From the NCBI GenBank assembly GCA_043808285.1, contig JAZDFA010000012.1:312-64311 (forward strand): DNA of 64,000 nucleotides. The letters run 5' to 3'. Below are positions 13,283-60,908 of the stretch, piece by piece. The stretch comes from an archaeon (GTDB lineage Archaea > Nanobdellota > Nanobdellia > Pacearchaeales > DTIR01). Within the stretch, counting starts at the first letter, position 1; each line of letters opens with the position of its first letter. The notes beneath the pieces are model-generated. The model was not told the origin of the DNA. It did not search any database and worked only from the letters and a program-made list of their open reading frames with translations. The translations under genes were made by a program, and so were the position numbers.

Positions 13283-13320
13283 GTGGTACAAATCACTTGG
13301 GTTTGAACTACTTCTAGATG
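13283..13320 (+). repeat. 38-bp direct repeat, left copy, flanking the TA cassette
   Basis: gtggtAcaaatcacttgggtttgaactacttctAgatg matches 13960-13997 at 36 of 38 positions. Confidence 0.9.
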
Positions 13321-13377
13321 ATTCTTAGGGCATTTTGTTTAAAAAAGATTAGCATAATTGTATATAGAAATTGAGGT

Positions 13378-13659
13378 CTATCTTTTGTAAACTTTATCAT
13401 GATGGTCAAAGTCTAGAAATTTAATTTTATTCTCTTCTTTGATAAAGCTGAAAACAAGAATAAAATGCCCTATATGAACTCTTTTTTTATCTTTCAAATC
13501 ATATCTGAGATTCTTGTAATGCTCAACATCTGAAGAGTTTATTATTTCTTCAATTTTCTTGAGTACCTGTTCATATAACTCCTTATCTTTTTTTGACAGT
13601 TTATTGAGGATTTTTTGCAAAGAAGGAATCACCTCATAAACATACATTTTAATCCTCAA
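13378..13659 (-). CDS. RelE/ParE-superfamily type II toxin (archaeal RelE-like)
   Basis: This 93-aa protein carries ...YKNLRYDLKDKKRVHIGHFILVFSF...FLDFDHHDKVY, a typical small RelE-like pattern. It overlaps the upstream antitoxin gene by 11 nt. Confidence 0.65.
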   Translation of the reverse strand: MRIKMYVYEVIPSLQKILNKLSKKDKELYEQVLKKIEEIINSSDVEHYKNLRYDLKDKKRVHIGHFILVFSFIKEENKIKFLDFDHHDKVYKR

Positions 13660-13888
13660 TTATCTTTCTTAATTGATTAATATTATTAAAATTTATTCCT
13701 TTTTCTTTCTCAAGAAGCTGTAATTTTTCAAGGTATTCTGGCCTTAATTCAGGCTCTAAAATATTTGCCCCGCATTCTATAACTATCTTTGTGATTGCCT
13801 CGCTTTTTGTCTTTAAGTTATACCTAGCTTTCACTATATTTAGTATCTGGTTTGCTTCTTTAGGAATTTCGATCATTGCTTGTACCAT
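13649..13888 (-). CDS. antitoxin partner (resembles the archaeal DUF2683-type MVQA...NIVKA.Y.LK.KSEAI family)
   Basis: This 79-aa protein lies immediately upstream of the toxin and overlaps it. The N-terminal MVQAMIEIPKEANQILNIVKARYNLKTKSEAI pattern supports the call. Confidence 0.55.
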   Translation of the reverse strand: MVQAMIEIPKEANQILNIVKARYNLKTKSEAITKIVIECGANILEPELRPEYLEKLQLLEKEKGINFNNINQLRKIIED

Positions 13889-13959: not shown

Positions 13960-13997
13960 GTGGTGCAAATCACTTGGGTTTGAACTACTTCTTGATG
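13960..13997 (+). repeat. 38-bp direct repeat, right copy, flanking the TA cassette
   Basis: See 13283-13320. The two copies are 677 bp apart and enclose only the TA pair. Confidence 0.9.
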
Positions 13998-14005
13998 CTT
14001 TTCTA

Positions 14006-14126
14006 ATGTCAAGAACACTTGACACAAACTACACACCCGCAAAAAACTCTGGTTTTTTTGGGCATAGGAAATCTTATTAGATTTCCTCTGTTTAGGGTGA
14101 AAGTAAAACTCAAGGAATTTTTTGAT
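14006..14126 (+). ncRNA. short copy of the hairpin element (candidate structured RNA or regulatory DNA)
   Basis: By my hand alignment it matches the first ~95 nt and the last ~25 nt (gtaaaactcaaggaattttttgat) of the 44984-45278 element at roughly 85% identity. It keeps hairpins gtcaag/cttgac, aaaaaac/gtttttt and aggaaatc/gatttcct. The ORF at 14019..14231 over it is probably spurious. Confidence 0.3.
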
Positions 14127-14274
14127 ATATCAGTTTTTCGCAAAATTGCCCCAATATCCCAATTATCACTATTTTTTTTATTTTTTATCCTGAAATATGA
14201 TATAAGGATAAATTTTAACAGTAAAATTTAAATAATTTTTATTACTTATAGGTAATACAGAATAAGAGAGTAAA

Positions 14275-21903: not shown

Positions 21904-22087
21904 AGAAGAATTCAGATTTCTATTCTTTGCAGTAGGGCTGATTGCTTTTTTATGGATCTTTTTTTCAAGTAAAATAAGAAAGAGCCTATACTTGCTTTTT
22001 AATTATCAATTTATAATCTGGGGGTTAATAATACTCATTTTATTCTTGATAAATTATAAATCTGAAGAGGAGGGGGGGGGGAGATAA
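21857..22087 (+). CDS. small 2-TM membrane protein (possible small subunit for the downstream symporter domain)
   Basis: This 76-aa ORF has two hydrophobic helices and ends 2 nt before the symporter-kinase gene. Its start is uncertain, and it overlaps the upstream gene by 47 nt. Confidence 0.35.
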   Translation: MEKLKKMEKLNKILAKEEFRFLFFAVGLIAFLWIFFSSKIRKSLYLLFNYQFIIWGLIILILFLINYKSEEEGGGR

Positions 22088-22089
22088 AA

Positions 22090-26835: not shown

Positions 26836-27190
26836 TCTTCCCCCACCTGCCCACGTTACGGTTGATAATTGACGTGAAATCAAGCAGTATAGGAGCAAGG
26901 CTCACGAGTTGTTTTTTTGGTTTGCAGACGGGGTTTTTCTTTGTTGGCAGAGGAGTATTCTTTTGACACTTGAATTGTTTCTTTACGCATAACTCAGATT
27001 TGCTTCCCCCTATCTTCAACCCCCGAAAAATATCCTCCCCCATTTCCATCCTTGCCCCCACTCAAAAGCCCTTACTCCTAACATCTTTACGACGACTAAA
27101 TTAAATAATTATTAATCCACTTGGTTGTTTAGCAGTTAATGGAGTAAGGTTACTCAATGTTTTTTTTTGGATTTAGCAGAATTAGTGTAA
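26836..27190 (+). repeat. intergenic repeat family, locus a (one full unit plus the start of a second)
   Basis: The blocks are collinear with loci b, c and d: cccccacctgcccacgttacgg, aagcagtataggagcaaggc, tttgcaga, acacttgaattgttt, cgcataactcagatttg, gcccttactcctaac, ctaaattaaataattattaa, then gtttagcagttaatggagtaagg + T9. Confidence 0.8.
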
Positions 27191-27191
27191 T

Positions 27192-27728
27192 TCAGATATC
27201 AATTGTCTTATCAGCAAACATTTCAAGGTCTGCCCTTAATATCTTGATATCTGCTTCTGGAATAGAGTTTCTCTTTAACACTATAAACACCTTTTTTGTA
27301 TCCTGCTGCTCAGAAACAAGGTTATGTGTAAATTTGATTATCTCAGAATTCTCCTGATATATCAGCAAGCTTGAGACAGTATCGAAGAATATTATCTTGC
27401 ATTTTTCTTTTGCGAGGACTTCTTTTAAGGCATAATTTACACTTGCTAGGTTCACAGGAGAAGGCAGGAAGAGGCAATTTTTTTCTTTAGCATGTTCGCC
27501 ATAATAACTGCTCAACGTATCTATAAAGAAGAATCTTTTTATATCTATACCCTCTTCTTTGAAGTTATTTGCAACATCCTTATAAGGCCTGCTTAAGCAG
27601 ACAAAGCAGATTTTGCATTTGGTTTTTTTTACAAATTTTATCATATCCCTTAATTTCTTAAGATAGCCCTCCTCATCAAGAAGCACAAGGGCAAAATTAT
27701 GCTTTGTTATATCCTGAAGTAAGTTCAT
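27192..27728 (-). CDS. KaiC-fold protein lacking a P-loop (DUF835-like)
   Basis: This 178-aa protein is a paralog of 27970..28479 and 49037..49591. The shared motifs are ICFVCLSRP, FFIDT, SPVNL, IIFFDTVSSLLIYQ and DLEMFADKTIDI. There is no GxxxxGK[ST]. Confidence 0.6.
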   Translation of the reverse strand: MNLLQDITKHNFALVLLDEEGYLKKLRDMIKFVKKTKCKICFVCLSRPYKDVANNFKEEGIDIKRFFFIDTLSSYYGEHAKEKNCLFLPSPVNLASVNYALKEVLAKEKCKIIFFDTVSSLLIYQENSEIIKFTHNLVSEQQDTKKVFIVLKRNSIPEADIKILRADLEMFADKTIDI

Positions 27729-27969
27729 TGTTTCACCTTTTTTTTTTGATAGTATGCTATCAGAGTATTATGGAGCCGATTATTTAAATATTTCTAATTA
27801 TTCCTATTTTTAGCACTTTTATTAGCTATTCTGGATAAATATGCAATATTATAGGATAATCACCCCGTATCTGCTTCATAACTATAATATGCATTGTTTA
27901 GGCGTTATCAAAAAACAAAACTACAACATTTATTTAAACATGTGTTGAAATTAAGAAGCAGCAAGACTA

Positions 27970-28479
27970 TCATAACGTAATTGTATTGTCAGCAAACATT
28001 TCCAAGTCCTTGACAAGCGTTTGGGCTATGTCTTCTTTTGGGCAGGGAAAAATGCCTTTGCATGATGAGTTTCTTATCTTCCCTATGACTGACTGGGCAA
28101 ACTGTATCACAAGGATTTCTTTGTTGTATGCAAGAAGGGTTGAAAGCGAGTCGAATATGATAGCATCAACTTTCTCTTCAGCCAATAATTTCGTTATAGA
28201 CAAGCTAATTCTGAATAAATCGCTTGGCGAGGATACTGGGATGCAGTTTTTTATTTCCCCCCGGCATTGAGATATGCAGTCAACAAATGCTATTTTGTCT
28301 TCATCTATCTTGCCTTTTAAGAGAGAAGAAAGAACTGCAGGAGACCTATTCAAGCAGACATATCCTATTTTTTTGAATTTTACCTCTTTTAGAATCTTTC
28401 CGATCTCATTGGAATATTTATTGTTAGGTATCAACAATAGTGTTATCTGATTACTTTCTATTTCCTTTTTTATCTCCAT
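27970..28479 (-). CDS. KaiC-fold protein lacking a P-loop (DUF835-like), paralog
   Basis: This 169-aa protein carries IGYVCLNRSP, AFVDC, SPSDL, IIFDSLSTLLAYN and DLEMFADNTITL. Confidence 0.6.
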   Translation of the reverse strand: MEIKKEIESNQITLLLIPNNKYSNEIGKILKEVKFKKIGYVCLNRSPAVLSSLLKGKIDEDKIAFVDCISQCRGEIKNCIPVSSPSDLFRISLSITKLLAEEKVDAIIFDSLSTLLAYNKEILVIQFAQSVIGKIRNSSCKGIFPCPKEDIAQTLVKDLEMFADNTITL

Positions 28480-29275
28480 TTTTTTCTTTCTCGCTGATTT
28501 TTCGATATTTTTCCTGCATCAATGGAAGCAGCTCTTCAATTTCTATTATCCTTTGCTGGTATCTCTCTATTGATTGGGTATACCTTTCTTTAGACATCGA
28601 ATTTGTCTCGAAATAATCCTGCTGTGCTTCTTTTATAAGAGAGATTATTGTTTCTTTCTCTTTTTTAAGATTCCTTATCTTCACTTTCAGGATTATTGAT
28701 GATGCTATCCTGCCAATGAGCGACAATATTATAATTGCCGCTATAAAAGCAGGGATTAGTATATACCAGTATTTCTTGAGAATATAAATAGCTTTCTCTC
28801 TAATCTGCGTTTTTCTTATTGATTTAATAAGGAAGGGCTGGCTTTCAATCTCGTTTATCTTTTGATATATGTTTTGGATTGTGTTTTCAGCATCTTCGTA
28901 CCTGTTTTCATCCAATGCATTTTGCCCAGCAGCAATCTCTTCAGAAAATTCATCTTTTTGCAGGTATTTCGATTCTGCTATCTTCTGTTTTGTCTTGTTT
29001 ATGAAATCAGTTATCACAATTGCCCTGTTTTTTGAATCTGCTATCTGCTGTGTTAATTCAGAGACAGATTCATAATCTCCCTCTTCGAAGTAGGAATAGG
29101 CCTCATTAAGAAGGTCATTTGCATAATGGGTGGTAAGCCCTGCATTTCTCATTTCCATTACGCTTTGATTCGCTTTTTCAAGAAGAGGGAGGGCATCTTC
29201 TTTGGAAATAGCTGAAACAAGATTAGACACAATCAGAAATGAAATAACGAAAACAGCGATTAATTTGCCATTCAT
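28451..29275 (-). CDS. membrane-anchored protein: signal peptide, helical hairpins, TM, cytoplasmic SHOCT-like coiled coil
   Basis: The signal peptide is LIAVFVISFLIVSNLVSA. The helical motifs are AYSYFEEGDYESVSELTQQ and NALDENRYEDAENTIQN. The TM helix is ILIPAFIAAIIILSLIG. The tail LIKEAQQDYFETNSMSKERYTQSIERYQQRI is homologous to the tail of the 1374-aa protein. Confidence 0.7.
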   Translation of the reverse strand: MNGKLIAVFVISFLIVSNLVSAISKEDALPLLEKANQSVMEMRNAGLTTHYANDLLNEAYSYFEEGDYESVSELTQQIADSKNRAIVITDFINKTKQKIAESKYLQKDEFSEEIAAGQNALDENRYEDAENTIQNIYQKINEIESQPFLIKSIRKTQIREKAIYILKKYWYILIPAFIAAIIILSLIGRIASSIILKVKIRNLKKEKETIISLIKEAQQDYFETNSMSKERYTQSIERYQQRIIEIEELLPLMQEKYRKISEKEKNGDKKGNRK

Positions 29276-29655
29276 TTTTTTGCCATTATTATGCCTCCGG
29301 CATTGTAAAGAGTGAGTGTTATCTCGCTGTTTTTAGGAGTGATACAAAAGTTTTCAGCAGTTTCGAGGGTAGATATATGGAAAGAAGATATTTTACCGTT
29401 TTCTATGAGATAGAGAACATCATCTTTCTGCATGAAACATACCCTTTCTATGCTTTTCTCAAGAGAAACTGTGTATTTCATTTCGAATCCCTTGCTTAAT
29501 AATCTCATCTCGTCAACTTTTCTTTGCATGAATATAACAAACTCTTCAGAAGGGATAGTCCCAGCACTGTTATTTTTTGATAATAGATAATACGCAGAGA
29601 ATCCTATTGCAATCAATGTTGCAACCAATATCACAATCTTAATCTCTTTTTTCAT
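29272..29655 (-). CDS. small N-terminally anchored protein
   Basis: This 127-aa protein has the N-terminal helix IVILVATLIAIGFSAYYLL and overlaps the downstream gene by 4 nt. Confidence 0.55.
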   Translation of the reverse strand: MKKEIKIVILVATLIAIGFSAYYLLSKNNSAGTIPSEEFVIFMQRKVDEMRLLSKGFEMKYTVSLEKSIERVCFMQKDDVLYLIENGKISSFHISTLETAENFCITPKNSEITLTLYNAGGIIMAKK

Positions 29656-29662
29656 TTCTATA

Positions 29663-32600
29663 TCATGATTTCTTCTTGTTTTCTATCATTTTTATCTGCT
29701 TTTTCAGGTCTATAATTCTTTCGTTATACCCTTCTGATATCTTTTCATAGGCAGAATAGGGAATCTCCTTCCTGTCATAATAACTTGTTTGGAGCTCTTT
29801 TAATGTTTCTTCTATCCTGCAGGACTCTTCTTTAAGCGCTTTCAAATTGCCCTTGTTCTTTATCTGCGAAATAATCTTCGTCCTTGTCTTTAGAGTCTCT
29901 ATTTCTATTGCAGCCATATCCTCCCGATACTTATTTATTGTCTTGTTATAAAGTGCCTCCCCGATTATTCTTTTTTCAAAATACGCTTCCTGTGCCTGCT
30001 TCATCAATTCCAAGATTTTTTCTTTCTTTCTTTTAAACAGCACAATTCTTCTTTTAGACAAAATGATTAATGAGGACTTAGTAATTACTGCAAGCAACAC
30101 AAATACCATGAAAAGCCCTGCTATTGAATACTGCCAATATTTAATTGCAAGATTAAACAGGTACATCATGTCGACAGGTTCACTCTTCTCTATCTCACTT
30201 ACAAGAAGGGCCTGATTTGCCATCTTTAATGCCTCATTATAATCTCCCATGCCGAAAGAATCTATTGCCAATCCTAGAATTTTTATTGTCTGGGAAACAT
30301 CAGCACCGCTAATAATAGCATTTTCTATTCTTTTTCTGCTTTCATTTATCAAATCAGCAGCTAAAACAGCTTTTTCCTTGTCTTCGATAACCTGTTCTGA
30401 AAGTTGGTAAGCTTCCTTGAATCTTCCATCATTAAAAGCTCGGTCTGCCTTGTCAATTATGCTGCTTAAGTAGAATGTGCTATATCCTCTTTCTTGCAAG
30501 GAACTAATGGATTTTTTTGCATCTTTCAATTTGGAAAGGGATTCGTTCCTGTCGAATTCATTTATTGTAAGCAGGAATGTTTTGCTTCTTGTTATTGTTG
30601 AATTGCCGCTTTGGGCATCAACAGAGAAGTTAAGCGTGTATTTCTGATACTGAGAGTATATCGGAGCTTCAATGAGAATAGTGAAATATGTGCTTTCATT
30701 ATATTCCAATCTCACTATTTTATTTGGAGAAATTTTAAAATAATCTTTTTTGTAACCTATCAACTGGGCAGTTATATTTCCTAAACTATTCGTTTTCTCA
30801 AGGGATGTTATTTTTGCCTTTATTGTGACATTCTTCCCACTTATAACCTCATTATCTGAGGAGATAGTTAATAATAATGTGTCAGAGATTATAATTGTTG
30901 TTCCTCCACCGCCCCCTCCTCCCCCTCCAGTACTCCCGCTTGTGCCACCAGAAGGGGTTGATGGGGGATTACTTACCGTAGTAGTTTTCGTGTCAGAATC
31001 AGAAGCTCCCTCACTGCAGTTTACATTAACGCTTATTGATTGGGTGCCGGTAGAAGCAGTGCTTCCTATATCTACTGAAACAGAGTGAGTTGTCAGACCC
31101 CCCACACTAAGATTGCCTATGCTTTCACTGAGATGTCTTCCTGTCCATCCAGAAGGAATTGTCCAGCTAATATTAACATTAGTGGCGGTGGCATTTCCAA
31201 GATTATAAATTGTAGCAGTCATATTGCTTAAATGGTCTCCGATGGTAACAGTTGAATCGTAAACAGTTATCAACGCATAAAGATGTGGGCCGGAAAGATA
31301 GGTTGAGAGGGTTGTATTAGAAAACCTAAATCTGGGGGAGGCAGTATCATTTGTAGAATTCACAAGAACTTTTATAGCATATTCTGAGGCAGTCAGAGGG
31401 CAGGTAGCATTTACTTCCAATACCTTAATTTGTTTTGCACTAAGCGAGAAAGAACTACTTTCATTGAACCATATTAAAGGGGTGGTGCCATAAGAGCTTA
31501 ACTGGAATTCCAAGGCATAATCTCCAGTATTATTTATTGTAAGATTAAAAAGAGTAATATTTGTTTCTATTACTCCACCGATTGCATCTGTTGTTGCGGG
31601 GGAGAGAATCCAGGAATAATCGTAGTAAACAGACACATTTATTGCATTGCTGCTATTAGCATTATTTGACCAATCTTTTGTCAGGATTTTGAAACTCCAA
31701 TTTCCTTCGCTGTTAGGGGTTATATTCTCGATAAAAATATTAAGAGAGGAATTTATCATGCTTTGATTAGTCCACGAGGATTCTGTTGAATTCTTATACT
31801 GAAGTGTTGCATTTGCAACACCTCCAAAATCAGTGATATTCACAGTAATAGACAAGAGAATATTTGGGTCTATTACATCAGCATTACTGGGAGTATAAGA
31901 AACAGACTCTATAATCGGGGAGAATGTGTCATTAACTGTAAAGTTGATCGCTGAGGTGTAATTCTGGTTATTCAATGAGTCGTTTAGATATATCCTAAAT
32001 GAGATGTTTCCTGCTCTGGAGGGGGAGAAGGTATAATTGTAAAGATTGCTTCCCTCATAATTCATAGTATGGTTAGCAGAATCATATTCCACAGATACAC
32101 TAGAAACATAACTTCCTTGGTCAGTTACAGTAACTTTAATTGTCTGATTATTCCCCACCTCTATACTTGATGAATAAGTAATATTGCTGTAGGCTGGCGC
32201 AATGTTATCCAAGCTGAAAGATATTGAAGAAACTTCAAGATGACCCAAGGAATTAGCGGCATATACTGTAATATTGTTTAAGCTGTTTATTGATATCCTA
32301 TCCCTGTATCTGTAAGAGTCATAAATCCTGAAAAGAAAATCCCTTGAACTATTAATGCTTGATTCTCCGAAAGGATATATTCCATTGTCGTTTGTTTCCC
32401 ATTCGTAATGATTTGATGCAGAACTGCTTCCATTCAGGAAAATCCAGTATTTTGTATTTGCCTGAATCCTTACAGTTGCATTCAAGGTTATATTCACCCA
32501 TGTGAAGCCCGCAGTATCTATGCTGCTATTACTGAAGTTGCCTATGCCTATTACTGAATTTAGAGGTGTAGAATTTCCAATCATTATTTGAACCGTTGCA

Positions 32601-33787
32601 TTCTGGGAACCTGTTCCGGCCATTCTCAGCCGAATAGAGATATTTGATATGTCCATTGTTTCCTGGGGAGTAAATGACTGGGAGATATTGAGGTAGTTCT
32701 CATTAGATTCGTTAAGCCCTGAATCGCTGGAATCAAGAGAGATATTCAATACATTCGAGAGAGTGGTATTCCCAAGATAATTAAGGTTGTAGGAAACAAG
32801 ATTGATTGTCGAGTTTGCATCATTGGAGATTATGGTGAGATTTAAATCAATGAGAGTAGCATTGAACAAGCTGCCATTTGAAGGGTTCACAAATGTTATT
32901 GTGATATTTGGAAGAATATTAACTGTCCTTTTTGTAGTGATATTCTGATTGCCGTAGGTGTCATTGACAATCAGATAGTAGCTGTATTGCCCGGCAGACA
33001 GCCCGTATTTTGTTATATTGGTATAATTGCCGATATAGTAATAAGTTTCATTAGCCCCGTTCCAATTCAGAGTTATAGTATCTGGATGAGATTCTACATG
33101 AGAAACATTTATCAGGAATGTCCTGGATGTCTGGTTGCTGTTATTAGCAGGAGTGGGAGAGATTATGTCAACTAATGGATTTGTAACATCCGGAGACTCT
33201 GCCTGAACAAGAAAAGTTACATCATCTGTATCAGAATAAATTTCATGACCATTATAACCGCATGTTTGGTTTGAGGCAGCAGTATATGCTATAGCCCCTC
33301 TTATTGAATGATTTCCTGCTAGGTTATCTAGAGTTATGTTTATACTTTTATTGACCCATGATGCAGTATTGCATGTAGCCCCATATATTACTTTCCAGAG
33401 ATTTGGATTTGATGAGCAGTCTTCTGTGCTGTTGCAATAAACTATATTCATCATGTCATATGCATCATTGTCACAATTATAGCTGACAATTATCTGAACT
33501 GTATCTCCCTTAACAAAAATGCTCCTGTTAAGTGAGGTGATAAATATGTCATGAACCCATTCCCAAACAACCTCACTCCCATCAGAGCAGGAATCAATGG
33601 TGTTCCATCCAGGTTCGGCAGGGGCGGTATTTCTTATGCCATCTGAAGTAACTCCCCGACAATTTGTTCCACAGGAGCACGGGGAAGAAGTGCAGAAATT
33701 TCCAGTAGTTGCATAAACAGAATTAGAAAAAAATAGGAGGAGGAGTATAGCTCCCAAGACATAACACCATTGTTTTATCTTTATCAT
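29663..33787 (-). CDS. giant sequon-rich surface protein (1374 aa) with poly-Gly hinge, Ig-like domain, helical hairpins, TM and cytoplasmic coiled coil
   Basis: The signal peptide is LGAILLLLFFSNSVYA. The protein has dense N-x-S/T sequons, Ig-like repeats (D.F.P.I....Y.P...) and a CARDB-like LTINNTGDYALEF segment. The hinge is GGTSGSTGGGGGGGGGTT (~30900-30965). Helical motifs are RAFNDGRFKEAYQLSEQ and SFGMGDYNEALKMANQA. The TM helix is IAGLFMVFVLLAVI. The tail carries two SHOCT-like motifs. Confidence 0.9.
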   Translation of the reverse strand: MIKIKQWCYVLGAILLLLFFSNSVYATTGNFCTSSPCSCGTNCRGVTSDGIRNTAPAEPGWNTIDSCSDGSEVVWEWVHDIFITSLNRSIFVKGDTVQIIVSYNCDNDAYDMMNIVYCNSTEDCSSNPNLWKVIYGATCNTASWVNKSINITLDNLAGNHSIRGAIAYTAASNQTCGYNGHEIYSDTDDVTFLVQAESPDVTNPLVDIISPTPANNSNQTSRTFLINVSHVESHPDTITLNWNGANETYYYIGNYTNITKYGLSAGQYSYYLIVNDTYGNQNITTKRTVNILPNITITFVNPSNGSLFNATLIDLNLTIISNDANSTINLVSYNLNYLGNTTLSNVLNISLDSSDSGLNESNENYLNISQSFTPQETMDISNISIRLRMAGTGSQNATVQIMIGNSTPLNSVIGIGNFSNSSIDTAGFTWVNITLNATVRIQANTKYWIFLNGSSSASNHYEWETNDNGIYPFGESSINSSRDFLFRIYDSYRYRDRISINSLNNITVYAANSLGHLEVSSISFSLDNIAPAYSNITYSSSIEVGNNQTIKVTVTDQGSYVSSVSVEYDSANHTMNYEGSNLYNYTFSPSRAGNISFRIYLNDSLNNQNYTSAINFTVNDTFSPIIESVSYTPSNADVIDPNILLSITVNITDFGGVANATLQYKNSTESSWTNQSMINSSLNIFIENITPNSEGNWSFKILTKDWSNNANSSNAINVSVYYDYSWILSPATTDAIGGVIETNITLFNLTINNTGDYALEFQLSSYGTTPLIWFNESSSFSLSAKQIKVLEVNATCPLTASEYAIKVLVNSTNDTASPRFRFSNTTLSTYLSGPHLYALITVYDSTVTIGDHLSNMTATIYNLGNATATNVNISWTIPSGWTGRHLSESIGNLSVGGLTTHSVSVDIGSTASTGTQSISVNVNCSEGASDSDTKTTTVSNPPSTPSGGTSGSTGGGGGGGGGTTIIISDTLLLTISSDNEVISGKNVTIKAKITSLEKTNSLGNITAQLIGYKKDYFKISPNKIVRLEYNESTYFTILIEAPIYSQYQKYTLNFSVDAQSGNSTITRSKTFLLTINEFDRNESLSKLKDAKKSISSLQERGYSTFYLSSIIDKADRAFNDGRFKEAYQLSEQVIEDKEKAVLAADLINESRKRIENAIISGADVSQTIKILGLAIDSFGMGDYNEALKMANQALLVSEIEKSEPVDMMYLFNLAIKYWQYSIAGLFMVFVLLAVITKSSLIILSKRRIVLFKRKKEKILELMKQAQEAYFEKRIIGEALYNKTINKYREDMAAIEIETLKTRTKIISQIKNKGNLKALKEESCRIEETLKELQTSYYDRKEIPYSAYEKISEGYNERIIDLKKQIKMIENKKKS

Positions 33788-33804
33788 TCATTTATTTTTC
33801 CTTT

Positions 33805-34671
33805 TTAGGGTTTTGCTTTTATTTCTTCCACGAAAATATCCTCTGAAGGGTATATTTCCATGCCTTTCCCCTCTATAATATCAAGAGGCACTATCTTCTT
33901 CTTATGCTGAGCGCCTCTTAGTTTCACTATCTCCATTGCACTTGTCCTATTGCCGCCCTGAACAAGGTTATAAAAAGAGATTATAGCATCTGCCAAAAAT
34001 TCTTCAACACCTGAATTGCTGTATCTTTCTGAAGTTTGCTGAACCTCACTTATAAGGAATGAAGTAACATTCAATTTTTCAAGGACTTTAAAGAGCTGTT
34101 CTATATAGACCCTGTAACCGTCTTCTTTTCCAATGAATGCGGCAGATATAGCACTAAGAGAATCAAGAACAATTATTGAGGGGGTAAATCCTGGAGGAAT
34201 AAGCTCCTTGATGTGGTCTATTTTTATCAAAAGCTCTCCTCTTGCTTCGGCAAGAAGCCCTTCTATAGAACGGGAGATTAAGAACGGATCCATTCTTTTT
34301 ATCATAAGAGTTCCTTTTTTTTCAAGTTCATCTGGTTTGAGACCATATTTTCTCATATGTTCCTTTAATCTTTCCTCGCTTTCTTCGAATGAGAGATAGA
34401 GGCACTTTTCGTTTCTTGAAGCAAGATTATTCAAGAGATGAAGGCAGAAAGTTGTTTTTCCAGTTCCGGGACCACCGCAAACCAAGATAGAAATACCTCT
34501 TGGTATTCCTCCCTCAATCATCTGATCAAATCCGGGGATACCCAAATTGAGCTTATCAGAAACCTCCTTCACTGCTTTTTTATTTTGCTTTTTATTGTTT
34601 TTCAGAGAAACCTTTTTTGCTTTCTTCAACTTATTCATGCCTTTTTTACTAATATGCCCTCTTTTCACCAT
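33805..34671 (-). CDS. KaiC-like ATPase with a basic N-terminal extension
   Basis: GIPGFDQMIEGGIPRGISILVCGGPGTGKTTFCLHLL contains Walker A. IIVLDSLS is the Walker B-like segment. It is the first gene of the minus-strand surface module. Confidence 0.85.
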   Translation of the reverse strand: MVKRGHISKKGMNKLKKAKKVSLKNNKKQNKKAVKEVSDKLNLGIPGFDQMIEGGIPRGISILVCGGPGTGKTTFCLHLLNNLASRNEKCLYLSFEESEERLKEHMRKYGLKPDELEKKGTLMIKRMDPFLISRSIEGLLAEARGELLIKIDHIKELIPPGFTPSIIVLDSLSAISAAFIGKEDGYRVYIEQLFKVLEKLNVTSFLISEVQQTSERYSNSGVEEFLADAIISFYNLVQGGNRTSAMEIVKLRGAQHKKKIVPLDIIEGKGMEIYPSEDIFVEEIKAKP

Positions 34672-34763
34672 TTTTTATGTAAAGATAAAGCGCTCTTTAT
34701 TTTAAAATCCTTTCTTTTTGCATTATTTCTCTTTAGAGGGTTTTTAAGAGAATAATAATTCTT

Positions 34764-35160
34764 TTTTACGCCCCAACTAATTCATCCACGAGTGTTCAAC
34801 GTTTTCTAATGGACGTGGTTGTTTAGCAGTGTAAGGAGTAGGGCTCACCGAATTGTTTTTTCTTGCTTTGCAGATAAAAATTTATTCTGATTCAAAACAA
34901 AAGAAGAAGCCCCATCTTTTCTGCCTTACTCCATTAAAACCTAAAAACGTCGAATAATTAGAAATTTTTAATAGTTGTATTTTTCCGCTTTTAGCAGTTT
35001 CGGAGTAATGGCTTACGAATTGTTTTTTCTTGGTTTTGAAGAGGGGAGATTTTTTTATACTTGAATTATCCAAGAAATTTTACCCTTAAGAATCCTTTTT
35101 GCCCACCTTTACTGCCCCCTAACTAACTAAACGACAGATAATTAGTAATTATAAACAGAA
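34764..35160 (+). repeat. intergenic repeat family, locus b (two shortened units)
   Basis: Its sequence runs tttacgccccaac...ccacg...cgtgg, gtttagcagtgtaaggagtagggc + T6, tttgcaga, ctgccttactcc, cgaataattag, ttttagcagtttcggagtaatggc + T6, acttgaatt, ctttactgccccctaac, acgacagataattagtaatta. It lies between divergent genes. Confidence 0.7.
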
Positions 35161-35254: not shown

Positions 35255-36130
35255 ATGGGCAAAAATTGGATTATTTTTTGCATAATTTTGATAGTTGCAA
35301 ACTCATTTGTAGGAGCAGAAATATTCATTGATTATGACCATGAGGCGATGCTGATGCCAGATTCAAGCGTAAATCTGCCTGTTTTAATAACAAATTTTGG
35401 AGGCAGCATGATGGAGGCAGAGGTAACATGCAGTTATCCTAGCAATATAACTACGAAATGCATAGATTCACTAACTCTAAATCCTTATGAGATGAAATCA
35501 ATAAATCTTGTTGCAAAATCTGGAGGAGATTTGGGAGTATTTCCGCTAGGTTTCAAAATAGGCGATTTGCTGGGAAGCATAAACATAAGGGTTAGCAACG
35601 CTCCTGTCTCTTTATTGAATATACTTAATGATTACAATTATTCCTTGTCGGAGCTAAAGAAAAGCGAGAGAACAAATGCAGAAGAAATAGAAAATGCATT
35701 ATTCTCGCTAGGTAATGCGTATTCTTTTTATTCAAATGGCAATTATTACAAGGCGAATGAATTGGCTGGGGAACTGGGATTGAAACTTGGAAATCTTTCG
35801 AAGAAAACATCTGAAGTGGAGATATCAAGAGTTAGAGGGTTAGTGGGCTTCTCAATAGCAGACACTGCAGACAATATTTATACCTCTGCAGAGCCATACT
35901 CTTATCTTATAATCCCCCTAATATTAGCAGTTTTTATTGCATTGGCAATAATTTCACATAATCTTCCTAAGGCGATAAGAAAGGAAAAATTAAGCTTTAG
36001 GCAAGGAATATCCGGAGTAAGCAAGGAGTTAATACCAGAGAGAATAGAACAGAAAACATTTAGAAATCCTTTTAGAAAATCAAAGAATAAAAAGAAATCT
36101 AACAGCATGCTAAATGAATTATTTGAATAG
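35255..36130 (+). CDS. anchored surface protein: signal peptide, Ig-like domain, helical hairpin, TM, basic tail
   Basis: An AAGGAG Shine-Dalgarno site precedes the ATG. The signal peptide is IIFCIILIVANSFVGA. The CARDB-like segment is VNLPVLITNFGGSMMEAEV. The helical motif is AYSFYSNGNYYKANELAGE and the TM helix is LIIPLILAVFIALAII. Confidence 0.75.
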   Translation: MGKNWIIFCIILIVANSFVGAEIFIDYDHEAMLMPDSSVNLPVLITNFGGSMMEAEVTCSYPSNITTKCIDSLTLNPYEMKSINLVAKSGGDLGVFPLGFKIGDLLGSINIRVSNAPVSLLNILNDYNYSLSELKKSERTNAEEIENALFSLGNAYSFYSNGNYYKANELAGELGLKLGNLSKKTSEVEISRVRGLVGFSIADTADNIYTSAEPYSYLIIPLILAVFIALAIISHNLPKAIRKEKLSFRQGISGVSKELIPERIEQKTFRNPFRKSKNKKKSNSMLNELFE

Positions 36131-44964: not shown

Positions 44965-44983
44965 TTCTGGTTAAATTCTTCTG

Positions 44984-45278
44984 ATGTCAAGAACACTTGA
45001 CAAAAACCATATACCCGCGAAAACCTATGGTTTTCGGGGCATAGGAAATCCTTTAGGAAATTTCCTCTGTTTAGTATGTGGTCGCGTGTTCTTGAGCACA
45101 AGAAAATCCTAAAAAGGTCCATCTGAAGATGGAGGCAACCAGATTTTCTGTGCAGGAAATTCAAAAGAATTTCCTTGCATCCCAATCAAGAAAAGCTTAT
45201 GCTTTTCTGGAACCTGAAAATCAGCAAGATTTTCATGTAATTCCAAAACATGCAGTAAAACTCAAGGAATTTTTTGAT
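44984..45278 (+). ncRNA. densely hairpinned ~295-nt element (candidate structured RNA or iteron-like palindrome array)
   Basis: Stem-loops lie at 44986-45001, 45014-45039, 45043-45066, 45089-45104, 45118-45133, 45151-45179, 45189-45208 and 45215-45235. A longer-range pair joins 45101-45108 to 45142-45149. The only ORF here, at 44943..45185 on the minus strand, looks spurious. Confidence 0.4.
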
Positions 45279-45397
45279 GAATAACTAAATTTCTTAGTAG
45301 TAAAAGTCAAAAGTATCTTCTGGAAGTTAACAAAAGGTTTTTAAATTGGATTTAGCTTTGAGAATTATCAAAAGAGGTTAGTGGTTAGATATTTAGA

Positions 45398-50107: not shown

Positions 50108-50400
50108 TCTACGCCCCACCCCCACCCACGTTACGGCTACGAATCGGTTGTTAATGGACGTGACATTTAGCAGTTAGGAGTAAGGCAGTTTTGGATTTGC
50201 AGAAGAATTAGTTTCTATTTCCTACACACTTGAATTGTTTTAATAGCATTACTCAGATTTGTCTCTTATCCAGAACAAGCCAAGAAATTTGTCCTTTCTT
50301 ATTCCTTGACCTCCCCAATCCAACTGCTCCAAGCTATAATACCTAAAACTACCGCTAAATTAATAATTATTAATCAAAGTAGTTATTTAGGCAGTTAGAA
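50108..50400 (+). repeat. intergenic repeat family, locus c
   Basis: Its blocks are tacgccccacccccacccacgttacgg, tttagcagttaggagtaaggcag (50165-50187), atttgcagaagaattagtttc, acacttgaattgtttt, cattactcagatttg, and ctaaattaataattattaa with the perfect palindrome ttaataattattaa at 50359-50372. Confidence 0.8.
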
Positions 50401-50414
50401 GGAGGAAATTTTCT

Positions 50415-51389
50415 TCATACTATACCTGAAAATATATTATTGATTATCCATCTTACAAAGAAAAACATTCCAAGACTGAAACCAAGAAGCATTGGCATGT
50501 ATCTTATTCCCTCTTTGAGGTCCCCTTTTTTTATGAAACCTAGTGCCAATGAGCCGCAGATACAAAGAGTGGCAAGGGTTATTATTATAAATCCCAGCAC
50601 AAAATTGCTGCTTATCGGGATTGCATTTACACTTATAGGTATAGACAAACCTTTAGGCATTTCTATGCTGGATATCTGTTTCTTTATTACTTCTGCAAGG
50701 AAAGAAGACAACGCAAACAGCACAGGAGAAGCAAAAGCTACTGCAGAAAGAATGAATATAAAATAAGCCATTGCAGAAGACTGCATTCTTTTTTCAACAA
50801 GCATTTGATTTCTTAGATTTTGCGCAGTTTGACTCAATAATATTGCAAGTTCCCCACCGCTTGCAATTCCCTGCACGATAAGCATCATTGTTTTTTCCAG
50901 TTTCTTGCTTTTAACAGTCCTTGTTATGTCTATCAATGCTTCTTCTATGCTTCTTCCAGTGGCTATTTCTTTTCCGATATTGGTTAATTGGTCTGAGAAC
51001 ATGCCGAATTCCGGCCTTGCGCTTAGTAGCAATGCCCGCTCGACAGTGTAGCCTGCCTTAAGATTGGAAGCAGTCAATTGCAATGCGTCAGGCAGTATAG
51101 ACTCAATAAATTTTGCCTTGCCATCTGCCTTGAGAATTAGATTAAGATAAGACCCTATTTGCATAAGGAAGAAGATTACTACACCGATGCCCAGATTTAG
51201 GGAATAATGAAGAGCAGTATCCATAAAAATAATCAATGAAACTGGCACTAGTATCGCAAGAATCACGCTGAATATGAAAGTGAAACCAATAAACTTTTCA
51301 ACTTTTGTATTATCGCCACCGCTAGCTAGCAATTCTTTGATATCCTCTCTTAATTTTCTGGGGTACATGCGAGATATAATTTTGTACAT
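50415..51389 (-). CDS. type IV pilus/archaellum-type platform protein, TadC/PilC-like half
   Basis: A single T2SSF-like domain (LPDALQLTASNLKAGYTVERAL...IGKEIATGRSIEEAL...LLSQTAQNL) is flanked by TM helices. Confidence 0.75.
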   Translation of the reverse strand: MYKIISRMYPRKLREDIKELLASGGDNTKVEKFIGFTFIFSVILAILVPVSLIIFMDTALHYSLNLGIGVVIFFLMQIGSYLNLILKADGKAKFIESILPDALQLTASNLKAGYTVERALLLSARPEFGMFSDQLTNIGKEIATGRSIEEALIDITRTVKSKKLEKTMMLIVQGIASGGELAILLSQTAQNLRNQMLVEKRMQSSAMAYFIFILSAVAFASPVLFALSSFLAEVIKKQISSIEMPKGLSIPISVNAIPISSNFVLGFIIITLATLCICGSLALGFIKKGDLKEGIRYMPMLLGFSLGMFFFVRWIINNIFSGIV

Positions 51390-58971: not shown

Positions 58972-59102
58972 AAATCCCTATTGAAAAGCTCGTCTAAAAG
59001 TTAGAACTTGTTTTTTTTATTTTTATATCTTTTTCTTTATTTTTATCTTATATTGTGTTTTTTGGATAATCTCTAGTTAGAAGGATGGACTATTCATTAT
59101 TA

Positions 59103-59400
59103 ATTTACGCCCCACCCGCCCACCCAAGGCTAAGACATTTACTTTTGTTAATTGCTGTATCCTCCTTTAGCAGTTAGGAGTGGGGCAGCTAGGAGGGGTA
59201 ATTTAAAAATTTGCAGATGAATTAGTTTTCCTTCCTTCCCTTCACACTTGAATCATCCTACGCATAACTCTATAATTTTCTTAACCCTTAATAATTTCTA
59301 GAATAATTAGCCCCCCCCAATTCTTCTTTGGTTTGTCCCATCTTTTTTGCCCCCTATCAAGAAGCCGACTGCTAAATTAATAATTATTAACAATGCCTTA
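59103..59400 (+). repeat. intergenic repeat family, locus d
   Basis: Its blocks are tttacgccccacccgcccaccc, tttagcagttaggagtggggcag (59166-59188), atttgcagatgaattagttttc, cacacttgaat, cgcataactc, a C8 run, and actgctaaattaataattattaa with the palindrome at 59377-59390. Confidence 0.8.
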
Positions 59401-60840: not shown

Positions 60841-60908
60841 AGTTATTTAATTCATGCATGAAATCTTTAAAAACCTTTTCAAAATTTTTATCAAATTAAC
60901 ATATCTTA

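Follow-up and report, generated by a model that had tools for sequence, protein, structure and literature searches.

An intergenic mosaic repeat at four operon boundaries of a DPANN archaeon, possibly of the BIME/BOX/MITE kind

Introduction

BOX elements of Streptococcus pneumoniae are intergenic, non-coding mosaics in which boxA, boxB(n) and boxC keep a fixed order and the internal modules vary in number; their end modules are partly complementary, they encode no transposase of their own, and the copies are numerous and well conserved. The repeat described here occupies four spacers of a 64,000-nucleotide stretch of a Pacearchaeales contig (JAZDFA010000012.1) from the Woesearchaeota-like MAG of an uncultured DPANN archaeon; this stretch is referred to below as the window. 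Like BOX it is a non-coding, intergenic, fixed-order modular mosaic with variable internal modules, partly complementary end modules and no transposase of its own. Its sequence is unrelated to BOX, however, and its hairpin is centred on an AT palindrome at the junction between units, whereas that of BOX is formed from the two ends.

The BIME, REP and REPIN sequences of Proteobacteria (E. coli, Pseudomonas) share further features with the repeat: they are extragenic, most of them between ORFs in convergent or unidirectional arrangement, a short motif alternates in orientation with alternating long and short conserved linkers, inverted dimers form a long hairpin, unit number varies between clusters, and roles in termination and mRNA stability have been proposed (PMC3733652, PMC3116915). 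The published REP pattern is a location between convergent ORFs with inverted dimers folding into larger structures, and the REP unit is a 20-40-bp imperfect palindrome with a GTAG or CGTC tag at one end (PMC3733652). The position of the elements in the window is REP-like in this sense, since they are extragenic, three of the four lie between convergent gene ends, and units of opposite orientation fold into a larger hairpin in loci a and c (more weakly in b, not in d). Unlike in BIME/REP, the core motif, block 2 (TTTAGCAGTTAGGAGTAAGG), is not self-complementary, is not a 20-40-bp GC-rich palindrome and carries neither the GTAG nor the CGTC tag; the units are ∼170-250 bp rather than ∼40-100 bp long, the copies are ∼60% identical rather than highly similar, and the host is an archaeon.

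MITEs such as Sulfolobus SM1-4 and the Neisseria Correia elements resemble the repeat in being 100-400 bp long, non-coding and AT-rich, in intergenic insertion that is missing at orthologous sites in relatives, and in possible promoter- or terminator-like signals (PMC10969869). Clear cases of the terminal inverted repeats and target-site duplications that define MITEs were not found at the four loci (the inverted repeat of locus d is partly ancestral), the copies are far more diverged than those of active MITE families, and no partner insertion sequence was identified in the window. In an archaeal system, the intergenic repeats of halovirus HF2 are likewise reiterated cassettes at the borders of gene blocks, with an AT-rich motif conjectured to be a promoter; they are 29 and 58 bp long and located upstream of genes, and their promoter activity has been demonstrated experimentally (PMC8707807). 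In contrast, three of the four copies in the window are at gene 3' ends, and the AT palindrome matches a promoter only weakly.

Results and Discussion

Copies and similarity

The four loci at 26.8 kb (a), 34.8 kb (b), 50.1 kb (c) and 59.1 kb (d) form one family of ordered blocks, ∼270-400 bp long, with the blocks in fixed order and in one orientation at all four. An earlier note on this DNA had described four collinear, same-orientation loci at operon boundaries, and leave-one-out nhmmer searches bore this out: the profile of the other three loci recovered a with E 2.6e-23, c with 2.2e-24, d with 1.3e-17, and b in two matches (E 7.6e-11 and 1.3e-7). In the rest of the window the family profiles gave no additional match at E <0.1. 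A tRNA/tmRNA origin was looked for, and none was found.

End to end, the four copies are 57-62% identical in pairwise comparison, a-c and c-d being the most similar pairs and b the most divergent copy; at such values there is no sign of recent mobility. Identity is concentrated in the blocks, significantly so in a permutation test (P = 0.0002 for c-d, ∼0.01 for both a-c and a-d), and the blocks are 80-100% identical between copies; this clumping is suggestive of a function, as opposed to junk, in a genome this streamlined. Exact copies of TACGCCCCACC lie at 50110 and 59106, and a copy with one mismatch at 34767; the counterpart in locus a is the degenerate cttcccccacc (26837-26848). On the + strand TTTAGCAG occurs eight times in the window, six of them within the four spacers (2.9% of its length). 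Block 2 as a 20-mer has two occurrences against 0.01 expected, and the 19-mer CTAAATTAATAATTATTAA has two exact occurrences and three with at most three mismatches against 0.25 expected. The left boundary varies: ∼30 nt 5' of the head block are common to a and c and not to d.

Unit architecture

Read on the + strand, the unit starts with a C-rich head with a small stem, followed by block 2 (TTTAGCAG..GGAGTAAGG), an oligo-T run and TTTGCAGA(AGAATTAG); its 3' part consists of ACACTTGAAT, CGCATAACTCAGATTTG, a C-rich tract, an inverted block 2 and the AT palindrome. Block 2 alternates in orientation along the elements, and the structure is modular: block 2 through AT palindrome can be repeated as one segment within a locus. 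A second block 2/oligo-T/TTTGCAG segment is present in locus a (27128-27185) and locus b (34990-35042), the two loci in which the earlier note had seen more than one unit; TRF detected no tandem array at any of the four loci; in locus c the second block 2 is degenerate (50386-50405). Nearly all of the blocks quoted earlier lie where they had been placed, including the inverted block 2 at 27068-27082 and 34921-34932. The perfect 14-bp palindrome inside CTAAATTAATAATTATTAA of locus c, given before as 50359-50372, is at 50360-50373. Two features listed as conserved hold for part of the family: the CACGT/ACGTG stem is found in a and c, is displaced by one base in b and is missing in d, and the oligo-T run after block 2 is T6-T9 solely in a and b, being reduced to T4 in c and absent from d.

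In locus a, the head block (26836-26877, + strand, H profile E 5e-9) has a C-rich tract (26840-26853) and a stem formed by CACGT (26852-26856) and ACGTG (26872-26876). Unit 1 (26880-26928, +) contains block 2 (tcaagcagtataggagcaaggc), T7 (26912-26918) and ggTTTGCAGa, and is followed on the same strand (26966-27003) by ACACTTGAAT (26966-26975) and CGCATAACTCAGATTTG (26987-27003) and then by four C5 tracts, G5 on the minus strand (27004-27059, +). An imperfect palindrome of ∼87 nt (27064-27150) comprises the inverted block 2, CTAAATTAAATAATTATTAA (27096-27115) and block 2 of unit 2 (27128-27149). Unit 2 continues with T9 (27160-27168) and ggATTTAGCAGAATTAG (27160-27185 together, +) and ends 6 nt from the stop codon of the minus-strand gene at 27192-27728. 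The head block of locus b (34767-34818, +) carries TACGCCCCAAC and a stem of CCACG (34786-34790) and CGTGG (34814-34818), with GGTTTTTAA upstream at 34739. Unit 1 of locus b (34822-34874, +) consists of block 2, T6 (34856-34861) and TTTGCAGA; an internal palindrome (34921-35012) is made up of the inverted block 2, an AT-rich palindrome-like sequence (34951-34973) and block 2 of unit 2 (34990-35012). The remainder of unit 2 (35023-35155, +, X-to-P profile E 7e-17) runs through T6 (35023-35028), ttttgaaga and ATACTTGAAT (35057-35066) to a C-rich tract with a degenerate inverted block 2 (35100-35128) and GATAATTAGTAATTATAAA (35137-35155).

Locus c begins with a head block (50110-50164, +) of TACGCCCCACCCCCACCC and a CACGT (50127-50131)/ACGTG (50158-50162) stem, followed by block 2 (TTTAGCAGTTAGGAGTAAGGCAG), the T4 run and GGATTTGCAGAAGAATTAG (50166-50211, +), and by ACACTTGAAT (50226-50235) and AGCATTACTCAGATTTG (50245-50261; both +, spanning 50226-50261). 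Its palindrome of ∼96 nt (50310-50405) contains CCTCCCCAATCCAACTGCT, CTAAATTAATAATTATTAA (50355-50373) and the degenerate block 2 TTTAGGCAGTTAGAAGGAGG, and ends 9 nt short of the T2SSF stop codon (50415-50417). Locus d has a left inverted copy of the AT palindrome, TATTCATTATTAATTTA (59091-59107; 17 nt, 88%), and a stemless head block, TACGCCCCACCCGCCCACCC (59106-59165, +). Then follow, on the + strand, block 2 (TTTAGCAGTTAGGAGTGGGGCAG) and, with no oligo-T, TTTGCAGATGAATTAG (59210-59225; the segment spans 59166-59225), ACACTTGAAT (59244-59253) and CGCATAACTC (59261-59270) within 59244-59270, and a last segment (59311-59390) with C8/C5 tracts, a split inverted block 2 (TGCCCCCTA...ACTGCTAAA, 59348-59376) and CTAAATTAATAATTATTAA (59372-59390).

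A coding or pseudogene origin was rejected, in agreement with the earlier note: there is no translated or nucleotide similarity elsewhere in the window, and in the TTG/ATG + TTTTTT 'MFF...' mini-ORFs TTTGCAGA is read in differing frames between copies, the frame shifts being visible directly in a, b and c.

Comparison with relatives

Loci a, c and d lie in convergent spacers and locus b in a divergent one, as had been noticed before; the element occupies the whole spacer and the adjoining genes are intact. The accompanying statement that the elements are not simply promoters or terminators of the flanking genes was right. Junction c, where a T2SSF gene faces a 146-aa gene, is conserved in relatives: the spacer measures -16 bp in L011, 14 bp in L012 and 44-45 bp in L013/14, compared with 369 bp in the window. 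Junction d, where the second KaiC gene faces a 169-aa gene, recurs in L038, the closest relative, whose spacer of 144 bp compares with 452 bp in the window; the T-rich left flank and ATTAATTTA are orthologous in this element-free spacer, and the ∼290-bp core is missing. Since the same convergent junctions are element-free in the nearest relatives, c and d are lineage-specific insertions into pre-existing short inter-operon spacers, and the gene order around them is older than the element.

The family profiles matched none of the relative loci examined, and the orthologue search for the gene to the right of b (35255-36130) returned the protein itself as its sole match. The compound pattern TTTAGCAGTN{1,4}GGAGTN{10,40}TTTGCAGA gave 10 matches in GTDB species genomes, 17 in JGI metagenomes and 0 in IMG/VR; all of the GTDB and JGI matches are chance occurrences lacking the other blocks. 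Searches with 16- and 20-mers against IMG/VR gave chance matches or none, and BLAST against phage and plasmid sequences was negative. Segmental duplication together with flanking paralogues was rejected, the paralogues being ∼30% identical at the protein level versus 80-100% for the blocks. DPANN genomes are very compact, the spacers of relatives spanning -16 to 144 bp where these junctions recur; non-coding inserts of 270-400 bp that carry conserved blocks and are retained at four places are therefore unusual for the group.

The preferred reading

We tentatively read the four loci as an old, diverged, non-autonomous, non-coding and lineage-specific mosaic repeat of the BIME/BOX/MITE kind, possibly with terminator side-effects of its hairpin and oligo-T modules. 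It resembles most closely the bacterial mosaic "junk-or-terminator" repeats. The copies may have come from one source through trans-mobilisation or duplicative recombination and may have persisted through 'safe' insertion sites at operon boundaries. The hairpin and oligo-T modules would perhaps help to terminate or stabilise the transcripts of converging operons, and the block-clumped identity could reflect selection or gene conversion acting on a few motifs while the linkers decay.

Convincing terminal inverted repeats were not found at the four loci: locus a has nothing of the kind, in c the sole pair is internal, 10 nt long and formed by block 2 with its inverted copy, and the left arm of the inverted repeat of locus d, ATTAATTTA, pre-exists in L038. 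Candidate target-site duplications are of low complexity (ATTATTAA at d, TTTTaTTC/TTTTcTTC at c) and follow no cross-locus pattern. Among the 42 window ORFs scanned there was no transposase, integrase or invertase domain. Along with these negatives, the divergence of the copies, the clumping of identity into blocks, the number of just four known loci and the differing left boundaries count against the reading. If the repeat is mobilised in trans, 'resident' repeats of the BIME/REPIN type would extend to archaea; for the present, the value of a lineage-restricted repeat is mainly that of an annotation flag.

Alternative explanations

The earlier note had listed, among three possibilities, a family of small RNA genes, which we consider unlikely. 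According to this model, + strand non-coding transcripts would initiate at or near TACGCCCC (past the AT palindrome in second units), comprise an unstructured, C-rich 5' region followed by block 2, and terminate in the oligo-T run. They could act in trans if their C-rich tracts, or the GGAG of block 2, which resembles a Shine-Dalgarno sequence, paired with other RNAs. As in archaeal sRNA genes, which have a BRE/TATA promoter and an oligo-T terminator, the loci are intergenic with AT-rich or TATA-like sequence upstream, and in a and b T6-T9 lies downstream of a conserved ∼25-nt core. All four units of these two loci have this run, and locus b has no upstream + strand gene to terminate. Conserved blocks separated by variable linkers and the strand asymmetry also fit such transcripts: the + strand GC skew is -0.24 to -0.29 (C over G) in a, c and d, and 14 of the 115 runs of at least four C fall in the element regions (+ strand), 1.9% of the window. 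The model is opposed by the missing oligo-T in c and d, and about two thirds of each unit would lie outside the putative transcript. The element is absent from relatives, so any sRNA role would be lineage-specific.

Promoter and structure searches bear on the same model. A promoter matrix was trained on 15 window promoters, whose own sites score 5.2-11.3. The AT palindrome, proposed earlier as a TATA-like element, reached 4.4, a weak score (296 window positions score at least 4); the locus b site fell below 4, and a, c and d have no site within the good-promoter range. GGTTTTTAA is found four times in the window, three copies preceding the initial ATG of an operon by 35-62 nt and the fourth preceding TACGCCCC by 29 nt in b, the one locus with this sequence ahead of its head block; in locus c, the centre of TATTTTATTA is ∼27 nt 5' of TACG. 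Both placements would suit a transcript start. The window gave no Rfam match at gathering thresholds, and locus c gave noise alone at E<=10. Whole units folded no better than shuffled sequences on either strand (z -0.2 to -1.4). RNAalifold found essentially no consensus structure from head to block 2 (-0.5 kcal/mol) and 0 pairs from block 2 through the oligo-T; its other predictions were -6.6 kcal/mol with a positive covariation term on the + strand and -25 kcal/mol with ∼0 covariation on the minus strand. No consistent covariation was found in a test whose power is low because it comprised 3-6 sequences. A 16-bp minus-strand helix predicted by RNAalifold between the G-rich complement of the head and the complement of block 2 was rejected, as composition-preserving shuffles performed equally (z -0.6 to -1.5) and base composition accounts for the duplex. 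Small terminator hairpins after block 2, visible by eye in a1, a2, b1 and b2, were also rejected; their columns are non-homologous between the four units, so that no consensus exists. Two of eight arm pairs are specific to their own partner, the locus c palindrome arms pairing specifically with each other, and the 5'/3' stem proposed between block 2 and its inverted copy is partner-specific in d alone (one of five pairs). There is no good evidence for the repeat as a structured small-RNA gene. Within the reach of the searches run, neither further copies nor covariation appeared, the combination that the earlier note had set against its own proposals.

Rather unlikely, in our estimate, are selected cis-acting boundary cassettes serving as bidirectional terminators or insulators, in which the oligo-T would halt + strand read-through while the hairpin and minus-strand G-tracts would stop or stabilise minus-strand transcripts, averting operon collision. 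The three convergent inter-operon spacers, filled by the element, are the context expected for this. The + strand genes have a run of at least five T near the stop, ahead of the element, and the minus-strand genes have none. Near the stop of the right-hand minus-strand operon in a and c, a ∼90-nt hairpin of inverted block 2, AT palindrome and next block 2 begins 42 nt (a) and 9 nt (c) past the stop codon. The palindrome of locus a folds at -24.2 (+) and -24.9 (-) kcal/mol, with z -2.9 on both strands, and that of locus c at -20.1 kcal/mol (z -2.8) on the + strand versus -31.0 kcal/mol (z -3.4) on the minus strand. The sole canonical G-quadruplex motif of the window is on the minus strand of the locus d head block, and two of the three relaxed motifs also fall in elements on the minus strand. 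The earlier terminator or insulator proposal is at most partly tenable: a and b have the oligo-T and a and c the stable hairpin; d has neither. The internal palindrome of b is weaker (z -1.1 on +, -1.8 on -), and at d the gene end lacks an adjacent hairpin (z +1.5 on +, 0.1 on -). Also against cassettes, locus b lies between divergent starts, the same junctions need just -16 to 144 bp in relatives, a bacterial-type terminator scan was empty, and all copies have a single orientation despite the symmetric convergent context.

Quite unlikely is a further reading, in which the loci would be either trans-acting sRNA genes that co-regulate the surface-protein, pilus and KaiC operons, or the first described BIME/REPIN-like, trans-mobilised boundary elements of DPANN doubling as terminators. 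The sRNAs may in that case combine a 5' seed rich in C with a core resembling a Shine-Dalgarno sequence and an oligo-U tail, and may have been seeded at operon borders in a lineage-specific manner. A role in host contact is assumed for the surface, pilus and KaiC modules, and if the loci are transcribed they would offer a first handle on RNA- or termination-level control of these modules.

Very unlikely, too, are non-autonomous derivatives of single-strand transposons, either PATEs of the IS200/IS605 type or REPIN-like elements, mobilised by a trans-acting Y1 (HUH) transposase whose gene lies elsewhere and inserting 3' of TYTA in one strand orientation. The asymmetric ends with no clear TIR or TSD, the subterminal palindromes (head stem and AT palindrome) and the inverted-dimer hairpin would suit such elements, as would TTTA, TCTA and TTTA directly 5' of CGCCCC in b, c and d, respectively (locus a is degenerate), and the uninterrupted L038 site AATTTA|AACCC. 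All four copies share one orientation regardless of gene orientation, but this has a chance probability of 1/8; no sequence relationship links the left stem to the right AT palindrome, whereas left and right hairpins are similar in IS200/IS605 family members; a and c are homologous upstream of the supposed left end; and TnpA or RAYT was not found in the window, RAYT/REPIN systems being described as bacterial.

Recombination sites, whether as scars or substrates of module shuffling, for excision of the operon between two direct copies or for inverton-like inversion of the ∼180 bp between block 2 and its inverted copy, are equally improbable: the lineage of the closest relatives (L038, L013) has the window order across c and d and is element-free, so that the rearrangement predates the element or is independent of it, which for c and d argues against the scars proposed earlier. 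The inverted repeats are short (9-15 bp) and imperfect, the retained part varies between loci, and the window encodes no recombinase, although block 2 and its inverted copy enclose ∼170-190 bp, the geometry of known invertons. Att-like pairs were rejected on the pattern of pairwise similarity: direct copies bracket discrete modules (a/b the 27192-34671 operon, c/d the pilus operon and the 169-aa gene), but the bracketing pairs are not the most similar. The window/L038, L011 and L040 differ in the order or orientation of the modules that they share, namely the 169-aa gene together with the pilus operon, the 146-aa gene together with DUF7504, and the KaiC pair; three arrangements occur, and L011 has its own direct repeat of 29 nt (90%) at two corresponding boundaries.

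Architecture of the repeat family

Reading and alignment of the spacers at 26.8 kb (locus a), 34.8 kb (b), 50.1 kb (c) and 59.1 kb (d) showed that all four belong to a single collinear family on the + strand. The unit opens with a C-rich head (TACGCCCCACC...), which in most copies has a CACGT/ACGTG stem, followed on the same strand by block 2 (TTTAGCAG-TTAGGAGTAAGG), an oligo-T run, TTTGCAGA(AGAATTAG), ACACTTGAAT, CGCATAACTCAGATTTG and a C-rich tract; it closes with block 2 again, now inverted and degenerate, and with CTAAATTAATAATTATTAA, which holds a perfect 14-bp AT palindrome. Locus d has one unit and locus b two, both shortened; in locus a the palindrome is followed by a second segment (block 2, T9 and TTTAGCAGAATTAG), and locus c carries an additional, degenerate block 2. 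The block 2 20-mer occurs twice (0.01 expected), motif counts far exceed chance, and six of the eight TTTAGCAG sites of the window lie inside the four spacers (2.9% of its length). In leave-one-out searches the omitted locus was regained by the profile of the other three (E 1e-7 to 1e-24); these three-locus profiles matched no further copies in the window. Alignment, motif counts and profiles thus agree with the one collinear, same-orientation family described in the earlier note. Its details needed amendment: the palindrome at c, placed at 50359-50372, lies at 50360-50373; the head stem is usual but missing in d; T6-T9 runs are present in a and b but not in c and d; and TRF reported no tandem array.

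Overall identity among the copies is only 57-62%, and it is clumped: at an overall 61%, exact matches extend over 20, 16 and 11 nt (by permutation, P = 0.0002 for c-d and ∼0.01 for both a-c and a-d). This clumping points to selection or gene conversion acting on a few blocks. C strongly outweighs G on the + strand (GC skew of about -0.25 at a, c and d), and 14 of the window's 115 runs of at least four C fall within the elements, which cover 1.9% of it. The sole canonical G-quadruplex motif of the 64-kb window, GGGTGGGCGGGTGGGG, is on the minus strand in the head block of d (59110-59125). At 27006-27059 locus a has four G5 tracts with loops of 9-13 nt.

Gene context and comparison with related genomes

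The genes of the window include those for two-component sensors, giant surface proteins and eight KaiC-superfamily ATPases (KaiC and DUF7504), together with a type IV pilus operon of the archaeal kind. The T2SSF protein flanking an element is 100% identical to NCBI MFH1249228.1 and has homologues in Woesearchaeota and Nanoarchaeota. The element occupies the entire spacer between convergent operon ends at a, c and d, and the spacer between divergent starts at b; since all four copies fill inter-operon spacers, their description as markers of module boundaries is correct. To the right of b, at the start of a giant-protein operon, the orphan gene at 35255-36130 encodes a 291-aa protein with no Pfam domain, whose sole match among 5.8 billion clustered proteins is itself.

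At c the T2SSF gene converges on the 146-aa gene and DUF7504; three relatives (T2SSF 55-62% identical) keep this junction, with spacers of -16, 14 and 44 bp vs 369 bp in the window. At d, the closest lineage (L038; 78 and 73% identity in the first and second KaiC genes) is collinear with the window, its second KaiC gene facing the 169-aa gene with the pilus operon adjoining; its spacer is 144 bp vs 452 bp, and it retains, in orthologous form, ATTAATTTA and the T-rich stretch that follows the 169-aa gene, without the ∼290-bp element core. Family profiles run on all relative loci gave no match, and no relatives of the repeat were found by pattern scans of GTDB species genomes, JGI metagenomes and IMG/VR or by BLAST against phages and plasmids. 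Protein paralogues beside different copies are only ∼30% identical, which rules out that the repeat was carried along by old segmental duplications. The repeat is real, lineage-specific, modular and intergenic, and it entered short inter-operon spacers; the copies compared at c and d are insertions, not conserved elements.

Nature of the repeat

Our preferred reading, to which we give somewhat less than an even chance, is that of an old mosaic repeat, non-autonomous and of the BIME/BOX/MITE kind, whose hairpin and oligo-T may have terminator side-effects. By the defining tests of MITE, REP and PATE the repeat falls outside each, and would therefore be a variant of that kind and not a member.

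Unstructured sRNA genes are an unsupported reading, and we consider them unlikely. Some features do speak for transcription. T6-T9 follows block 2 in every a and b unit, even in b, which has no upstream + gene; at c a TATA-like TATTTTATTA lies ∼27 nt upstream of TACG. The motif GGTTTTTAA occurs four times, always intergenic (18857, 34739 and 45336 on the + strand, 60867-60875 on the minus strand): three copies lie 35-62 nt upstream of operon-first ATGs, inside the local promoter consensus AAAAGGTTTTTAAA, and the fourth points into locus b, 29 nt upstream of TACGCCCC. Against this, the repeat has no Rfam match and no tRNA, and for neither strand does a whole unit fold better than shuffled sequences (z -0.2 to -1.4). 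RNAalifold gave -6.6 kcal/mol with a positive covariation term for the + strand and -25 kcal/mol for the minus strand; the minus-strand value came mainly from a helix that pairs the complement of the head, which is G-rich, with that of block 2, which is rich in pyrimidines. This helix did not outdo composition-preserving shuffles and was rejected. No consensus structure was obtained for the putative transcript from head through block 2 to oligo-T (-0.5 kcal/mol) or for six segments from block 2 through oligo-T. On a promoter matrix trained on the regions upstream of 15 operon-first genes in the window (consensus AAAAGATTTATAAAGA), the AT palindrome scores 4.4, compared with 5.2-11.3 for the training sites; a score of 4 or more is reached at 296 positions of the window, and the scan found no better site in a, c or d. 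The small-RNA family with a TATA-like palindrome and a pairing stem, as first proposed, is not borne out.

Terminators selected at operon boundaries are also improbable.

An imperfect palindrome of ∼90 nt is built around the AT palindrome, with inverted block 2 as one arm and the next block 2 as the other. Its stability is significant at a (z -2.9 for the + and the minus strand alike) and at c (z -2.8 for the + and -3.4 for the minus strand) and weaker at b; folding detected no such hairpin at d or at the end of b. The c hairpin begins 9 nt past the T2SSF stop codon and is far more stable as minus-strand RNA (-31 vs -20 kcal/mol). Partner-specific arm pairing was seen only in c (the two arms around the palindrome) and d (block 2 and its inverted copy, GGGGCA/TGCCCC); in the other six arm pairs non-partner arms paired as well or better, and the likeness of the arms therefore comes mainly from homology.

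No clear terminal inverted repeats or target duplications were found at the loci, and the left arm of the d inverted repeat is partly present already in the element-free relative. Derivatives of a single-strand transposon are very unlikely: TTTA or TCTA directly before CGCCCC in b, c and d, the common orientation and the asymmetric ends are reminiscent of the IS200/IS605 type, but the two end hairpins are unrelated, a and c are homologous upstream of the supposed end, and the window has no transposase or recombinase domain.

Equally doubtful are recombination sites. Three modules (the 169-aa gene with the pilus operon, the 146-aa gene with DUF7504, and the KaiC pair) are arranged in three ways, in the window and L038, in L011 and in L040, and L011 carries a direct repeat at matching boundaries; boundaries within the clade are therefore prone to rearrangement. 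The closest lineage, however, has the window order without the element, and module-bracketing copies are not the most similar pairs; thus the element neither caused the arrangement seen here nor is its scar, contrary to one of the three possibilities in the earlier note. Across relatives, where the gene that accompanies the pilus operon encodes 150-170 aa, the three modules stand in three different orders or orientations, and circular permutation of the L011 block gives the window order. The L011 repeat (3380-3408 and 13400-13428; 29 nt at 90%, or ∼29-45 nt; TCCTGTAATTTTrTGGTATyTGATwTAAA) lies at two boundaries that match the two sides of junction d and whose joining would give that junction; it is absent from the window.

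Other intergenic elements in the window

A second, unrelated hairpin-rich intergenic repeat was found on the + strand at 14001-14140 and 44979-45285. Both copies have the 5' part TTCTrATGTCAAGAACACTTGAC...CCCGC(r)AAAA..GGTTTT..GGGCATAGGAAATC..TTTCCTCTGTTTAG and the 3' part GTAAAACTCAAGGAATTTTTTGAT, the 45-kb copy having an insert of ∼150 nt; one stem shows compensatory differences (CCCGCAAAAAAC/GGTTTTTTTGGG vs CCCGCGAAAACC/GGTTTTCGGGG). They lie ∼110-135 nt upstream of + genes, a radical-SAM/B12 gene (14275) and that of a 1197-aa protein (45398). No Rfam family matched this repeat, even at E≤1. We consider it a candidate for a cis-leader or an ncRNA.

Two copies of a 41-bp direct repeat, 93% identical, flank a pair of minus-strand genes from 13283-13323 on one side and 13960-14000 on the other. 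One gene (13378-13659) encodes 93 aa and is RelE-like by eye, and the other (13649-13888) encodes 79 aa; together they look like a toxin-antitoxin cassette inserted with target duplication. At 22068-22089, in a genome of 36% GC, a very G-rich ribosome-binding region (gaggaggggggggggag) adjoins the 5' side of the histidine-kinase/SSF fusion gene at 22090; it includes a G10 run that may be slippage-prone.
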